A stretch of DNA of 64,000 nucleotides, from positions 41,972-105,971 of the forward strand of contig CAZVRT010000003.1 in NCBI GenBank assembly GCA_964630375.1. The letters are read 5' to 3'. This DNA comes from an uncultured Candidatus Saccharibacteria bacterium. GTDB taxonomy: Bacteria; Patescibacteriota; Minisyncoccia; Phycocordibacterales; JAACPR01. Position 1 is the first letter of the stretch. Each line of letters starts with the position of its first letter. Below the pieces are notes generated by a model. The model made no database searches and had not been told where the DNA came from. It was given only the letters and a program-made list of their open reading frames with translations. Below, piece after piece: positions 25,932 to 31,940 of this stretch. The position numbers and the translations under genes are program-made.

Positions 25932-25983
25932 TAAATTATTTTATCACCAAAAAATAAAAACACTTCTTCCGAAGTGTTGTTTG

Positions 25984-26057
25984 CGCGAGTGATGGGACTC
26001 GAACCCACGGCCTTCCGCGTGACAGGCGGACGCTCTAACCAGCTGAGCTACACCCGC
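25984..26057 (-). tRNA. tRNA-Asp (anticodon GTC)
   Basis: Acceptor GCGGGTG / CACTCGC, anticodon loop CTGTCAC, T-loop TTCGAGT. 74 nt. Confidence 0.85.
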
Positions 26058-26155
26058 AATATTTCGCTAAATATCGCGTTCCAGTACTTTATCAAATTTG
26101 ACGAAGTTTATCAATATTAAACCAAACTTGTCCCGAGGGGCAGAATTGAACTGCC

Positions 26156-26229
26156 GACCTTAGCTTTATGAGTGCTACGCTCTAACCAACTGAGCTACCT
26201 CGGGGTGCATTTAATCAATGCAAAAACAC
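26156..26229 (-). tRNA. tRNA with a CAT anticodon (elongator Met or Ile2)
   Basis: Acceptor CCCGAGG / CCTCGGG, anticodon loop CTCATAA, T-loop TTCAATT. 74 nt. Confidence 0.75.
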
Positions 26230-27788: not shown

Positions 27789-29768
27789 ATGAATAAATTT
27801 AAAAATTCCATAGTTCGGTATTTTGCTGGACTGGTTATGGCAGCGATGGTTGCCGTTCCTTCAGTTCACGCATTAACACTGAGCGATGTAGAACTACTAA
27901 TTTCACTTGGCATAATTCCTGCTGATAAAGCTACTGCAGCAAGAGCTGCTGTTTCAGGAAATCAAACAGGCAACGTCTGTGGAGCCTTCACTAGAGATTT
28001 AACTCTGGGAAGCACAGGTTCCGACGTTGTTGCTCTGCAAACATTTCTTGAATCAAGAGGAATGTTGGTGATGCCGGTTGGTGTTGCAAAAGGATATTTT
28101 GGAACAATAACCAGAAGTGCTTTAGCTAGATATCAAGCTTCGGTTGGGATCTCTCCAGCTGCTGGATATTTTGGACCGATAACCCGAAGCGATGTTTCAT
28201 CAAAGTGTACTCCAACTACACCCACTCCTCCACCAACAACTGATCCTGATCAAGAATTAAGAGGAGGTGAAGCAAGTATCAGAAACTACACGACTCTTTC
28301 AACTTACTCAAATGAAGATCTTGAAGAAGGTGAATCAGGAAAAGTATTCGCTTCAAGATTCCGAGTTGAAGATGGTGATATAAGAATCGAAAGAGTTTCT
28401 GTAAGACTTGAAGCTGTGTCACAAAACAACGAAGACGAGCCATGGAAGCATATTGAATCTATGGACTTGTACGTTGGTGGACGAAGAGTTGCAAGTGCTG
28501 ACGTAGACAGTCAAAGTGACTGGTCACGAGGAGAAAGTACTGATAACTCAGTTGCAGGTACAAGATCTTATGAAATGAGATTTTCAAACTTGAGAGAAGT
28601 TATCGAACGAGGTAGTAACGGAGAAATTGAAATTCTTGTTCAAACATCGGACCGAATTGATAATTCAGATCTTCCACAACGATGGAAAGTTTGGATTCCA
28701 CGAGACGGAATAAGAGCACTTGATGCAAGAAACGTTCAACACTACATTGGTTCAGACAGCGATTCTCGATTCTTCAATATCGAAAACGCAGGTGACGGTG
28801 AAGTAAGAATCCGAGAAAGCGACCGAGATCTTGATCCAACAATTTTAATTGTTGATTCAAGTAGCCGATCTCCTTCTTATGAAGTATTCAGATTTGTCGT
28901 AGATAATACAGACAATGCTGATGTGTTGTTAAATACAATGACACTGGTTGCCTCAACTTCTCACAATAACATTCAAAATGTTATTTCAGATTTGTCAGTA
29001 AGAATTGGTGGAAAAAACTACCAATATGACAATGCCTCAACAACATCAAATCTAGGAGAATACCTATTTGATTTTGAAGACAACAACGATCAAATTTCTA
29101 TTGATAGAAATGAACGAGTTGAAGTTGTAGTTTCAGCTAGATTCAATAGACTAAACGGAAATTATCCAGATGGTACTCAAATTCAATTTGGTATCGGAAG
29201 AATAAATGGTGATAATTACGGCACTGAATTTGGAATCGAAGCAGAAGGTGAATCTACAGGTGACAGATCTACAATTAGCGGAAGACAAGAAGGTTCAGTA
29301 CACACTCTACGAACTCAAGGAGTTAATGTTACAACTACTTCAAGAGGAACATTCGTATACAGAGAAAACACTTCATCTACATTATCAGATGACGAAGGTG
29401 AATACAGATTCACAGTGAGAGTAACTGCATTCGAAGAAGATGCTTGGATTGAAAACAGTGTATCAGTAACAGCATCAAGTACAGTTGGTTTTGTAACAGA
29501 GATTACTGGAGATGCATTTTCTGGAATTAGCAACGCGCGAATTGCAGACACATCAGCCAGAACTCTTACAAACAACAGATACAGAATTCCGGAAGGAGCA
29601 ACAGAAACCTTTGAAATCGTAGTAAGACTAGACCCAGATGCAAGAGGAGCTTTCGGACTAAGATTGACTGACATCAACTTTGCCGACAGTTCAACAGGTA
29701 CACCAACAAGCTACGTTGTACCAAACACTCAAGAGTTTAGAATTCCTACTTACACAATTCAAAACTAA
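27789..29768 (+). CDS. Secreted protein with a peptidoglycan-binding (PG_binding_1-like) domain
   Basis: Signal peptide. GSTGSDVVALQTFLESRGML...GYFGTITRSALARYQASVGISP...GYFGPITRS. The rest is Ser/Thr/Asp/Arg-rich. GC is higher than in neighbouring genes. Confidence 0.55.
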   Translation: MNKFKNSIVRYFAGLVMAAMVAVPSVHALTLSDVELLISLGIIPADKATAARAAVSGNQTGNVCGAFTRDLTLGSTGSDVVALQTFLESRGMLVMPVGVAKGYFGTITRSALARYQASVGISPAAGYFGPITRSDVSSKCTPTTPTPPPTTDPDQELRGGEASIRNYTTLSTYSNEDLEEGESGKVFASRFRVEDGDIRIERVSVRLEAVSQNNEDEPWKHIESMDLYVGGRRVASADVDSQSDWSRGESTDNSVAGTRSYEMRFSNLREVIERGSNGEIEILVQTSDRIDNSDLPQRWKVWIPRDGIRALDARNVQHYIGSDSDSRFFNIENAGDGEVRIRESDRDLDPTILIVDSSSRSPSYEVFRFVVDNTDNADVLLNTMTLVASTSHNNIQNVISDLSVRIGGKNYQYDNASTTSNLGEYLFDFEDNNDQISIDRNERVEVVVSARFNRLNGNYPDGTQIQFGIGRINGDNYGTEFGIEAEGESTGDRSTISGRQEGSVHTLRTQGVNVTTTSRGTFVYRENTSSTLSDDEGEYRFTVRVTAFEEDAWIENSVSVTASSTVGFVTEITGDAFSGISNARIADTSARTLTNNRYRIPEGATETFEIVVRLDPDARGAFGLRLTDINFADSSTGTPTSYVVPNTQEFRIPTYTIQN

Positions 29769-29807
29769 CAAACTTTGTTAAGTTTTAGAGGATTGTTAAA
29801 GCAAAAC

Positions 29808-29835
29808 AAAAAGCCGCCCAAAGGGCGGCTTTTTG
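29808..29835. terminator. Bidirectional intrinsic terminator
   Basis: aaaaagccgccc aaa gggcggcttttt. It serves both the plus-strand gene ending at 29768 and the minus-strand tRNA-fMet gene. Confidence 0.7.
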
Positions 29836-29853
29836 TTTTGCTCTATTTTCTTG

Positions 29854-30138
29854 TTGCGGGGCCCGGAATTGCACCGGGGTCTAGAGGTTATGCTTACTAC
29901 TATGATTTTCATCACCACAATTGTGTTTGTAGTCTGGACTATGCCATCACCCTCTTTTTAAAAGTAGGGTGTCTACCGTCTAGTCTCTACACCTTCAAGT
30001 CATTTAGACAAGCTTGGCTCGGCATTGCCAACCTGTATAAGGTAAGGTTTCACCGAATTTGGCAGATTCTCAATAAAAATTTCTTTTTATTGGGCCCTTA
30101 AATTTGAGCCTCTCGAGGTACTACTCCTCCACCCCGCG
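29854..30138 (-). tRNA. Initiator tRNA-fMet (CAT) gene split by a group I intron. Exon 1 is 30107-30138, exon 2 is 29854-29892.
   Basis: Joined exons give CGCGGGGTGGAGGAGTAGTACCTCGAGAGGCT|CATAACCTCTAGACCCCGGTGCAATTCCGGGCCCCGCAA. C1-A72 mismatch, A11:U24 pair, anticodon loop CUCAUAA. The 5' exon is very similar to E. coli tRNA-fMet. Confidence 0.75.
29893..30106 (-). mobile_element. Group I self-splicing intron (214 nt) in the tRNA-fMet anticodon loop
   Basis: 5' splice site after a U; IGS GGGCC; P2 hairpin. P element AAATTCGG (30047-30060) and Q element AATGCCGAGCC (30016-30026). R element GAGACTAGACGG (29976-29987), P8 hairpin CACCCT..AGGGTG, S element CATAGTCCAGAC (29932-29943). P7 pairs GACUA with UAGUC. 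Terminal omega-G. Confidence 0.7.
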
Positions 30139-30169
30139 ATATTTCATCCAACTAAAATGGATATGCAAG

Positions 30170-30178
30170 ATTATAACA
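30170..30178 (-). promoter_or_regulatory. Extended -10 element (TGTTATAAT) upstream of the tRNA-fMet gene
   Basis: The minus strand reads tgTtaTAATc about 31 nt upstream of tRNA position 1. This implies a processed leader. Confidence 0.3.
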
Positions 30179-30255
30179 CTATTTTTTATAAACGCAACAT
30201 TCTTTTATACAAATAAATTAAATATAATAGTTTTACCTGCAATCCCTAGTTCAAT

Positions 30256-30936
30256 ATGTCTGATACCAAAAATAAAGAAAAAGCAATCTATTTAAGAAAA
30301 CAAGGTTTTAGCATTAACGATATATCTAAAAAATTAAACAAAAATAAAAGCACTATCAGTTATTGGTGCAGAGACATTAAACTAACAAATAAACAAATTA
30401 AAATTATTCAAGAAAAAATAATTACAGGAGGACAAAAAGGTTCATTGATCAGATCAAAGAAACTGCAAATTGACAGAAAAATTAAAAACAAAAAATATTC
30501 AGATTTAGGCAAATCAGATTTGGGAAAAATATCAAAAAGAGATTTGTTTATGATTGGATTGGCTTTGTATTGGGGTGAAGGATATAAAAAAGGAAATTAT
30601 GAATTTGGTTTTACAAACAGTGATCCTAGAATTATAAAAACATTTTTAACATGGTTAAAAGAAATTTATGAAATATACGAAGATAAGTTTATTCTTAGGG
30701 TTTCTATAAATCAATTACACAAACATAGAGAAAAACAAATCATCAATTTTTGGCAAAAAATTACAAAAACTCAGAAATCACAATTTACAAAAACTAGTTT
30801 TATAAAAACTGAACCTAAAAAACAATATAAAATAAACAATGACTATTATGGAACTTTGAGAGTAAAAGTTCGTAATGGCGCAAATTTACGCAGGAGAATA
30901 ATGGGCTCACTAGAAAAAATTTCAGAAATTATTTAA
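30256..30936 (+). CDS. Free-standing LAGLIDADG-type homing endonuclease with an N-terminal HTH
   Basis: The dodecapeptide-like motif LFMIGLALYWGEGYKKG, followed by YEFGFTNSDPRIIKTFLTWLKEIY, resembles single-motif LAGLIDADG enzymes. The N-terminal IYLRKQGFSINDISKKLNKNKSTISYW is a resolvase-type HTH. Confidence 0.55.
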   Translation: MSDTKNKEKAIYLRKQGFSINDISKKLNKNKSTISYWCRDIKLTNKQIKIIQEKIITGGQKGSLIRSKKLQIDRKIKNKKYSDLGKSDLGKISKRDLFMIGLALYWGEGYKKGNYEFGFTNSDPRIIKTFLTWLKEIYEIYEDKFILRVSINQLHKHREKQIINFWQKITKTQKSQFTKTSFIKTEPKKQYKINNDYYGTLRVKVRNGANLRRRIMGSLEKISEII

Positions 30937-31940
30937 ATGAAATAAAATTCTTCAAAGACTTGCCGATACAAATCAATTACTCTTTCAGCTTCAGATTTTG
31001 AAAATAGAAAATCCCCTCCTCTGTGCGCAATGTGATTTCTAATTTTGTGAGCTTCCCAAGCTTTATTCAAAGTAATAAAGTCACTTTCTTCAATTTTCTT
31101 CAGCCTATCACCAATTGAGTCGCCTTCGTATCCCATTCTGATAAGCATTTCATCAAGAATAATATCAGCTTCAATAATTGCCTGTCGCCAATCACTTGAA
31201 GATGAAGATTGAATCAAATTTTGTACACGCACCCATCTTTCATTTTTTGGACCAGTTGGAGTTTGTTCTTCAACTTCAAAAGAAAATCCTAATGCACTTG
31301 CATCTCCTGTCGGCAAATTTTCAGGCAATCCCAAACTCGCCAAACTAACAGGCTCAGATTCTTGTTGATATTTTTCTTTCATCTTTCTTTCCAAAGATAA
31401 TTCTTGAAGTTCTTTTTTACTATTTATCAAAGAAACTGCTTTCTTTTGTTTTTTAGAAATATGATAAATCAACAACAAAAATATTAGAGCCAAAATCAAA
31501 CCAATCGGTCTAAAAATATCCAAGAAAATTGGAAAAATATTTAAAGCTCGAAACAAACCAACATTACTTGTGATATCTTTCGCCTCTACCCAACCATCAG
31601 GAATTTTTTGATAATCAATTCGATACCAATGTCTTCCAAAAGCTTCAACAGGACCTTCCAAAATTTGTCCGATGGCTCTTTTTGATTGCTCACCAATTAT
31701 TGCACCGGCTGGCACTTGTCGAACTTTTATATCTGTAATATTTGCAATTCTTTTTCCTATTGCTAAATCACCAACTGGCAAAATTCTTAAATCACTTGAG
31801 GTGTTTCCAATTTCTAAATTTTGCTCTTCAACTTTTGAATTAAATTTATCAACATAAAATCCAAGAAGAAACACAATGAAAATCATTGCGTAAACACCAT
31901 ATATCAATCCGTTATCAGCACCAGTTGGTTTGTCTGCCAT
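30933..31940 (-). CDS. Two-TM membrane protein with a C-terminal HEPN/DUF4145-like motif
   Basis: TM segments IYGVYAMIFIVFLLGFY and IGLILALIFLLLIY. The C-terminus has AWEAHKIRNHIAHRGG (RN..aH, Rx4H). Confidence 0.35.
   Translation of the reverse strand: MADKPTGADNGLIYGVYAMIFIVFLLGFYVDKFNSKVEEQNLEIGNTSSDLRILPVGDLAIGKRIANITDIKVRQVPAGAIIGEQSKRAIGQILEGPVEAFGRHWYRIDYQKIPDGWVEAKDITSNVGLFRALNIFPIFLDIFRPIGLILALIFLLLIYHISKKQKKAVSLINSKKELQELSLERKMKEKYQQESEPVSLASLGLPENLPTGDASALGFSFEVEEQTPTGPKNERWVRVQNLIQSSSSSDWRQAIIEADIILDEMLIRMGYEGDSIGDRLKKIEESDFITLNKAWEAHKIRNHIAHRGGDFLFSKSEAERVIDLYRQVFEEFYFI

Follow-up and report, generated by a model that had tools for sequence, protein, structure and literature searches.

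Group I introns in bacterial tRNA genes usually carry no open reading frame (ORF), and it has long been a puzzle how such introns spread and are maintained. What, then, does it mean that about 80 species-level genomes have one and the same unnamed gene just outside an essential initiator tRNA gene that holds an ORF-less intron? We address this question at one such locus, in a 64,000-nucleotide (nt) stretch of contig CAZVRT010000003.1 (assembly GCA_964630375.1) from an ultra-small Patescibacteria bacterium; this whole stretch is called the window, coordinates are positions in it, and L-numbers (L019, L109 and so on) are labels of the comparison loci that we collected. The gene in question is a 226-amino-acid (aa) ORF at 30256–30936 on the plus strand, with an N-terminal helix-turn-helix (HTH) domain, next to a tRNA-fMet gene that is split by a group I intron. 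It is free-standing, and its specific linkage to the intron-bearing tRNA-fMet is well supported. Because the gene lies beside split tRNA-fMet genes and never beside the unsplit copies that were sampled, it is most likely that gene and intron form a single selfish 'homing' element and move as a unit.

Linkage of a free-standing gene to split initiator tRNA genes

Eighty gene-bearing loci came from a scan of one genome per GTDB species, and six more from contig look-ups. The linkage is near-obligate: in essentially all of the approximately 80 Paceibacteria loci with enough upstream sequence, an intron-split tRNA-fMet adjoins the gene, mostly in divergent orientation and with approximately 70–160 bp between the gene start and the tRNA 5′ end. 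Where no tRNA is visible, the sequence upstream of the gene is in most cases too short (L002, L053 and L054). The linkage persists with other genomic neighbours (L003) and in flipped orientation, tRNA and gene lying on the same strand in three loci (L027, L075 and L086). Contigs L078, L083 and L036, which carry the cassette of gene, tRNA and intron, sit in bins labelled Nitrospira, Burkholderiales and Azotimanducaceae, labels that probably reflect mis-binning or contamination of metagenome-assembled genomes (MAGs).

Metagenomes were also scanned for intronless initiator tRNAs with an A29:U41 anticodon stem, and at none of the 80 loci sampled in this way did a family member stand beside the intronless tRNA-fMet. 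The preliminary description of this DNA had proposed either trans-acting homing of the neighbouring intron or an endonuclease gene that had departed from it; the co-occurrence (about 80 loci with both gene and intron, none of 80 intronless loci with the gene) favours the trans-acting alternative, and we saw no sign that the gene had left the intron. Nor did we see the gene in relatives that lack the intron, far from tRNA-fMet.

Three of the 80 intronless loci (L109, L168 and L131) are syntenic with gene-bearing loci, and two of them form co-oriented empty sites, L109 against L019 and L168 against L064 (also L043), with exon identities of 91–100%. L109 shares with L019 the neighbour gene, the orientation of the tRNA and a 3′ exon that is 100% identical, and the homology ends approximately 13 nt upstream of the tRNA. 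In the place of the HTH gene, between the conserved neighbour gene and tRNA-fMet, L109 holds an unrelated 148-aa ORF with a J-domain-like stretch (L109:2342–2788), so that the two loci differ by replacement and not by simple insertion or deletion. L131, which shares the conserved gatA cluster with the window, lacks the gene and has a tRNA-fMet that is not split; because this tRNA points the other way from that of the window, we did not count L131 as a clean empty site.

The intron itself occupies one of two sites. Among the parsed loci it lies between U33 and C34 in 68 and between U36 and A37 in 12, and introns at both sites score at or above the Rfam gathering cut-off. Loci whose exons are identical may differ in the kind of intron, and the two kinds of locus are interleaved on the protein tree; therefore, the loci have in common that the anticodon loop is interrupted, while the intron that interrupts it differs.

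These comparisons bear on the possibility that the adjacency is meaningless, an ordinary lineage-specific gene lying beside tRNA-fMet in a clade that also has the intron. The gatCA synteny is widely conserved (gatA is nearby in 69 related loci, in a ligA–gatC–gatA arrangement), so vertical inheritance alone would keep neighbours together. However, the linkage outlasts changes of context and of orientation, syntenic relatives lack gene and intron together, and paralogues repeat the tRNA-adjacent pattern at other tRNA genes, as described below. Chance neighbourhood is already a strained explanation, and we regard it as highly improbable.

The features of the locus in the window are as follows.

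30256–30936, plus strand: ORF of 226 aa with an ATG start, a candidate homing endonuclease gene that stands outside the intron; its product has an HTH, a long helix and, at the C terminus, a conserved alpha/beta domain
30256–30375, plus strand: N-terminal HTH DNA-binding domain, residues 1–40 (Pfam HTH_38, HTH_23 and HTH_7; three short helices in the AlphaFold2 (AF2) model)
30388–30519, plus strand: single long helix, residues 45–88, joining the HTH to the C-terminal domain (AF2 secondary structure; missing in 'mini' paralogues by alignment)
30535–30933, plus strand: C-terminal domain, residues 94–226, without a Pfam family (AF2 model and alignments)
30544–30594, plus strand: motif LFMIGLALYWGEGYKKG, residues 97–113, a LAGLIDADG-like pattern that aligns with the second I-DmoI motif, GLYVAEGDK
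30139–30255, between the divergent genes: 117-bp intergenic spacer from the tRNA 5′ end to the ORF start, presumed home of both promoters
30107–30138, minus strand: 5′ exon of the initiator tRNA-fMet, CGCGGGGTGGAGGAGTAGTACCTCGAGAGGCU, last base U33
29893–30106, minus strand: ORF-less group I intron of 214 nt between U33 and C34 of the anticodon loop (Rfam RF00028 and sequence)
29854–29892, minus strand: 3′ exon of tRNA-fMet, CAUAACCUCUAG...CCCCGCA, running from 29892 to 29855, or to 29854 if the discriminator A is counted; CCA not encoded
29800–29842, no strand: 20-bp hairpin between T-runs, a strong bidirectional terminator between the tRNA and a convergent 659-aa gene
30933–31940, minus strand: conserved neighbour, last gene of a ligA–gatC–gatA–hyp cluster, with a 4-nt overlap with the ORF

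The intron scores 76.8 bits against the Rfam group I model, for which the gathering score is 50. Parsing of the sequence places its junctions at GGCU/C...G/CAUAACC (slashes mark the junctions) and gives CUCAUAA as the spliced anticodon loop; the 5′ exon terminates in U and the intron in G, and GGCU may pair with GGCC just inside the intron as P1. ARAGORN did not detect the split tRNA-fMet of the window, because the intron interrupts the gene. A scan of the 117-bp spacer for consensus promoters gave no match above chance. The layout given in the preliminary description holds: the plus-strand ORF of 226 aa starts 117 bp (given as about 120 bp) from the 5′ end of the intron-bearing tRNA on the opposite strand, contains the quoted LAGLIDADG-like motif at residues 97–113, overlaps the convergent gene at 30933–31940 (minus strand) by 4 nt, and stands beside the tRNA, outside the intron.

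In the initiator tRNAs of this group the D-loop is shortened, CCA is not encoded and the third anticodon-stem pair is A29:U41, where G:C is usual; many of them begin with A or U, not C, yet keep the 1:72 mismatch. The neighbour at 30933–31940 (minus strand) encodes a protein that is anchored in the membrane and whose C-terminal 'W-E-A-H-K-I-R-N-x-I-A-H' domain is without a recorded Pfam match, and 27789–29768 encodes the 659-aa protein, which is secreted and has a PG_binding_1 domain; both are conserved in relatives.

The protein family and the nature of its C-terminal domain

The 226-aa ORF is a real, conserved gene. A word-indexed search returned 717 homologues of the protein at E ≤ 1e-3, and an exhaustive search, counted in cluster representatives, returned 6187 at E ≤ 1e-3, 3309 at ≤ 1e-10 and 433 at ≤ 1e-30; the homologues from the exhaustive search that have a source name are Patescibacteria (Paceibacteria/Parcubacteria). 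Across 40 homologues at approximately 50% identity, 28 positions are invariant, including Y105, W106, E108, G109, Y110, T120, N121, R148, N152, W166, Q176 and F177. Family-wide, the C-terminal domain retains W106, E108, G109, K111, N121, D123, W166, Q176, F177 and G199, with the signature W-x-E-G-x-K ... N-x-D, and the E108–G109 pair of the motif (GLALYWGEG) is invariant in the 40 homologues and in every subfamily.

Searches of Pfam and NCBIfam with the protein, 40 homologues, the actinobacterial branch and 40 'mini' paralogues recognized HTH families (HTH_38, HTH_23, HTH_28 and HTH_7) and, beyond these, only the sub-threshold LAGLIDADG_3 matches given below, and no family was recognized by either in the C-terminal 130 residues of the protein and 40 homologues. 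Among these 40 members HTH_38 matched 39, HTH_23 matched 38 and the resolvase family HTH_7 matched 26, at sub-threshold to threshold scores, which backs the resolvase-type HTH proposed earlier for the N terminus. In the AF2 model (predicted local distance difference test (pLDDT) 85.8), a three-helix HTH (residues 1–40) and a long helix (45–88) precede a C-terminal alpha/beta domain with a helix at 94–106, strand at 118–121, helix at 124–138, strand at 145–152, helix at 153–170, strands at 181–183 and 200–205, and helix at 209–225; the order is thus helix, (hairpin), strand, helix, strand, helix, strand, strand, helix. Some relatives of 504–591 aa are tandem fusions of two complete HTH-plus-domain units, and both halves keep the YWCEGxK and NSDP signatures. 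This implies that the working unit is a dimer, and the 226-aa protein would accordingly be expected to act as one.

We could not confirm the assignment to the LAGLIDADG family that the preliminary description had made. No family member reaches the threshold of any LAGLIDADG Pfam model (PF00961, PF03161 or PF14528); LAGLIDADG matches are absent for the window protein and absent among the matches listed for 40 close homologues, and PF14528 (LAGLIDADG_3) matches occur in 3 of 40 paralogues of the 'mini' subfamily with E values of at least 0.13 (P0388, 12.9 bits against a cut-off of 22.5 bits). Foldseek searches of the PDB with two confident models, the monomer and a tandem-fused relative (pLDDT 81.7), returned no LAGLIDADG structure and no nuclease fold, and a search of BFVD matched the HTH alone. 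The best PDB matches were OmpA-like (YfiB, E = 0.035, target-normalized template modelling (TM) score 0.42), IspF and YjgF; at target-normalized TM scores of up to approximately 0.44 and root-mean-square deviations of roughly 4.5–12 Å, we took these as a generic beta-alpha-beta-alpha-beta-beta topology and rejected homology. We also rejected a PD-(D/E)XK reading, based on an E-x-x-K string, and a GIY-YIG reading, based on a G-Y...Y-x-G string; in both cases spacing and predicted secondary structure misfit and no PDB match lends support.

The signals that point towards LAGLIDADG enzymes are sub-threshold and centre on I-DmoI. PDB sequence and profile searches with the close family gave HTH noise and no match beyond chance, a PDB profile search with the 'mini' subfamily gave no match, and hhalign gave no match to I-CreI. 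I-DmoI is the top PDB match for two profiles of the diverse family, at E values below significance (0.018 for A3 and 0.14 for A4, among 177,635 sequences); hhalign compared the family with I-DmoI at E = 4.5e-4 and a probability of 33%, and with nine genuine LAGLIDADG_3 proteins from the candidate phyla radiation (CPR) at E = 0.005 and a probability of 7%. The I-DmoI alignment puts GLALYWGEGYK on the second catalytic motif, GLYVAEGDK, with E108 on the second-motif Glu, and a further segment, NSDPRIIKTFLTWL, is placed on NKNKALLEIVSRWL. As in LAGLIDADG enzymes, an invariant acidic residue closes the motif helix and is followed by Gly, and single-domain forms exist alongside tandem-fused relatives; as in I-DmoI, the motif is followed by a strand-turn-strand and an 'N-S-D-P-x-I-I...W-L' helix, aligned with I-DmoI residues 96–147. 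Unlike LAGLIDADG enzymes, the family has an added N-terminal HTH and approximately 45 extra residues between the third and fourth core strands, and its element order fits the LAGLIDADG core only if an insertion of about that length (helix plus strand) is assumed at this point.

The combination of an HTH with an endonuclease-like domain recalls WhiA, a transcription factor composed of LAGLIDADG-like domains and an HTH. By this precedent, the present protein would be a domesticated HTH regulator with a catalytically dead endonuclease-like domain, with transcriptional control over the divergent tRNA-fMet or itself from the 117-bp spacer. The divergent layout with its short shared intergenic region, the HTH domain, and the high conservation and conserved position of the gene are what such a regulator would show. 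However, the domain order of WhiA is reversed, and WhiA has lost its catalytic residues whereas the present family keeps an invariant acidic/basic set; even very distant subfamilies share E108, K111, N121 and D123 without exception, the pattern that an active site would show. The WhiA Pfam model had no match in the family members scanned, its sole match being the canonical LAGLIDADG gene of L212 (E = 1e-4). Regulation would also leave unexplained the absence of the gene from every sampled intronless allele and the overlap of paralogues with the 5′ ends of other tRNA genes, as seen for canonical LAGLIDADG genes, and the orientation to the tRNA is flipped in L027, L075 and L086. We consider a regulatory role quite unlikely.

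Paralogues at other tRNA genes

Relatives of the gene recur at other tRNA genes. The 'mini' subfamily comprises 565 proteins of approximately 200–215 aa without the long helix, and its genes stop 8 nt before, or overlap, the 5′ end of tRNA-Thr(GGU). Four contexts of a 'mini' gene with tRNA-Thr are these.

L041:8880–10036, minus strand: 'mini' gene and tRNA-Thr
L211:3001–3925: 'mini' gene and tRNA-Thr
L212:3001–3880: 'mini' gene and tRNA-Thr
L061:8432–9153: 'mini' gene and tRNA-Thr

A group I intron lies between U36 and A37 of the tRNA-Thr(GGU) in the first three of these loci, and there is none in L061. Of 120 'mini' members, 26 have a C-terminal peptide tail encoded by the 5′ exon of the tRNA. 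The stop codon of the gene falls within the tRNA or the intron in L212 and L041, so RNase P processing would strip the stop from the mRNA. A second paralogue is found at tRNA-Met(CAU): in L040 it overlaps the 5′ end of the tRNA gene, which is intronless, and in L007 it lies between tRNA-Met and tRNA-Asp. Members of a high-GC branch (Actinomadura, Streptosporangiales and soil metagenomes) lie 0–119 bp from an intronless tRNA-Gln(UUG) in varying orientation, and in some of them the whole HTH-plus-domain unit is duplicated in tandem within a single chain. Three of these homologues, near glmU–prs, are located as follows.

L087:5001–6801: homologue beside tRNA-Gln(UUG), cultured Actinomadura
L088:5001–6071: homologue beside tRNA-Gln(UUG), metagenomic
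L090:5001–5991: homologue beside tRNA-Gln(UUG), metagenomic

Canonical double-motif LAGLIDADG_3 genes (Pfam 1e-17) in related genomes have their stop codon within the 5′ end of tRNA-Asp(GUC). The adjoining tRNA-Asp has a group I intron between U35 and C36 in L212 (gene region 1350–2330), L043 and L047 and none in L019, L039, L045 and L046, and in L005, L034 and L064 the LAGLIDADG_3 gene is reduced to decayed fragments. As these genes occupy the same tRNA-flanking position, the unnamed family shares its habitat with bona fide homing endonuclease genes. The LAGLIDADG_3 gene with tRNA-Asp is a second free-standing endonuclease/tRNA pairing in the same genomes. In the window, an intronless pair at 25983–26204, made up of the elongator tRNA-Met(CAU) at 26130–26204 and tRNA-Asp(GUC), has no flanking endonuclease-like gene and is thus an 'empty site' relative to L007 and L040 (second paralogue) and to L212 and L043 (LAGLIDADG_3).

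The distribution over tRNA genes, with and without introns, bears on the alternative that the protein acts on RNA, as a maturase-like splicing cofactor that works in trans. It would bind the intron RNA or the pre-tRNA and be required for the initiator tRNA intron to splice efficiently, so that hosts with the intron would retain it. Maturase activity has precedents among LAGLIDADG proteins, for example I-AniI and bI3. A cofactor of this kind would account for the near-perfect co-occurrence with the intron and the absence from intronless alleles, for the stable synteny, for a second subfamily adjoining an intron-bearing tRNA-Thr, and for mostly intact ORFs under strong purifying selection (in one clade the ratio of non-synonymous (dN) to synonymous (dS) divergence is approximately 0.1, with dN ~0.17 and dS ~1.7). 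However, homologues and paralogues also stand beside intronless tRNA-Met, tRNA-Thr (L061) and tRNA-Gln. Damaged copies make up 4 of 86, namely L047 with a stop at the invariant W166, L077 with a frameshift, and L063 and L068 with the HTH lost; the intron is retained beside the damaged gene in L047, L063 and L077, sequencing errors in MAGs being possible. Coexistence of nonsense, frameshifted or HTH-deleted copies with an intron in a presumably single-copy essential initiator tRNA is hard to square with an indispensable splicing factor. In addition, one protein clade serves introns at two sites, the N-terminal domain is a typical DNA-binding HTH, and the introns fit the Rfam group I model over its full length, as do bacterial tRNA introns that self-splice. 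A maturase would be found solely with its intron and would be indispensable there; this family also occurs where there is no intron and, judging by the damaged copies, is probably dispensable, and we judge a role in splicing to be unlikely.

Proposed collaborative homing at the anticodon arm

The explanation towards which we lean is that the gene belongs to an uncharacterized family resembling homing endonucleases, with the anticodon-arm DNA of tRNA genes as its target and the intron as a source of immunity, which would amount to collaborative homing in a cellular genome. The inferred scheme, which covers catalysis, target and direction of transfer, is as follows. An HTH-assisted dimer would bind the uninterrupted anticodon-arm DNA of the initiator tRNA gene, a natural near-palindrome, and the cut is predicted to fall in this anticodon-arm DNA of the intact (intronless) tRNA-fMet gene. 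An intron in the anticodon loop, between U33 and C34 or between U36 and A37, would separate the half-sites and so shield the carrier genome, and self-splicing of the intron would keep the essential tRNA functional. Repair of the broken intronless allele from the carrier copy would then co-convert the intron, the 117-bp spacer and the endonuclease gene, as in collaborative (trans) homing. In favour of this reading stand the linkage, the intronless alleles without the gene, the two alternative intron sites, the paralogues beside other tRNA genes, the canonical LAGLIDADG genes in a like position, the tandem fusions that point to a dimer and the weak resemblance to the catalytic motif region of I-DmoI.

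Known systems offer partial parallels. The T4 enzyme SegB is a free-standing GIY-YIG homing endonuclease encoded in a phage tRNA gene cluster, where it promotes inheritance of the adjacent tRNA region; the present gene is likewise free-standing among tRNA genes, but SegB is a phage GIY-YIG enzyme and has no intron. I-Ssp6803I has the restriction-enzyme PD-(D/E)XK fold and is encoded within its intron. It is cited as the homing endonuclease of the Synechocystis tRNA-fMet intron (cited in PMC3984707). Both cases involve an initiator tRNA as host gene and an intron in the anticodon loop, and I-Ssp6803I targets the anticodon region of intronless tRNA-fMet genes; therefore, the anticodon-region DNA of tRNA-fMet is a workable homing site. 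In contrast to I-Ssp6803I, the present protein has an HTH and is encoded outside the intron and antisense to it, and PDB sequence searches gave no match between the two. Collaborative homing at this locus would thus be a functional parallel to I-Ssp6803I.

Collaborative homing has been described for the free-standing F-CphI with an ORF-less psbA intron in cyanophage S-PM2 and for T4 mobE with the nrdB intron (PMC3984707, PMC6083498, PMC2790892). As in those pairs, the intron lies where the endonuclease would be expected to cut, and intron and gene would co-convert as a unit. The differences are that F-CphI and mobE concern phage protein-coding genes and Endo VII-type or HNH enzymes, whereas here a tRNA gene of a cellular Patescibacteria chromosome is concerned, the protein family is unclassified and its cleavage predicted, and the pairing occurs in about 80 species-level genomes and at two intron positions. 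LAGLIDADG enzymes such as I-ShaI, inside CPR rRNA introns, have been characterized in a study that does not mention tRNA (PMC11270868).

Several observations weigh against homing. The gene-bearing loci were collected through the protein, and the linkage was counted among those loci. Conservation of the gene is unusually high and disrupted copies are rare, GatA is the less conserved of the two proteins in one clade, and the syntenic position is widely shared, with gatA nearby in 69 loci; by conservation, intactness and synteny it therefore looks more like a host gene than a short-lived selfish endonuclease gene. Pfam, NCBIfam and PDB profiles gave no nuclease family at significance, Foldseek (PDB and BFVD) gave no known nuclease fold, and the phage, plasmid and viral-contig collections searched held no homologue. 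Nucleotide identity rises modestly over the tRNA-gene cassette relative to the flanks, without a sharp transfer boundary, so that horizontal exchange, if there was any, was not recent.

Divergence of the protein follows that of the neighbouring GatA only loosely. Identities of the two proteins correlate with r = 0.51 overall and with r from −0.11 to 0.49 within clades, and in the Nomurabacteria-like clade the protein is 69–79% and GatA 54–79% identical; a comparison of dS with that of GatA is near saturation and hence not decisive. The weak correlation within clades suggests that the evolution of the gene may be partly decoupled from that of its host. Loose coupling of this kind would fit a selfish element, as would the damaged copies beside a retained intron and the switches of intron type on the protein tree.

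How far the proposal extends to the whole family is a more tentative matter. The C-terminal domain might be an unrecognized homing-endonuclease catalytic family, derived from LAGLIDADG beyond detection or a separate fold, with thousands of members specialized on tRNA genes, that has driven and maintained group I introns in initiator tRNA and tRNA-Thr genes across Patescibacteria; we find this conceivable but doubtful.

The occurrence of group I introns in Patescibacteria tRNAs has been noted anecdotally (PMC8172020), and our literature searches turned up no account of the protein family or of its association with tRNA introns. If the protein were instead a splicing or regulatory factor, it would represent a protein-controlled step in the production of initiator tRNA in minimal-genome organisms. 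If it cuts intronless tRNA-fMet DNA, this would be the first collaborative homing in cellular chromosomes and in tRNA genes, would explain why introns are frequent in Patescibacteria tRNA genes, and would reveal a large new family of sequence-specific DNA enzymes, of which single-chain tandem forms already exist in Actinomadura. Should the broader proposal for the whole family hold, collaborative homing would be a widespread cellular phenomenon and not a phage curiosity.

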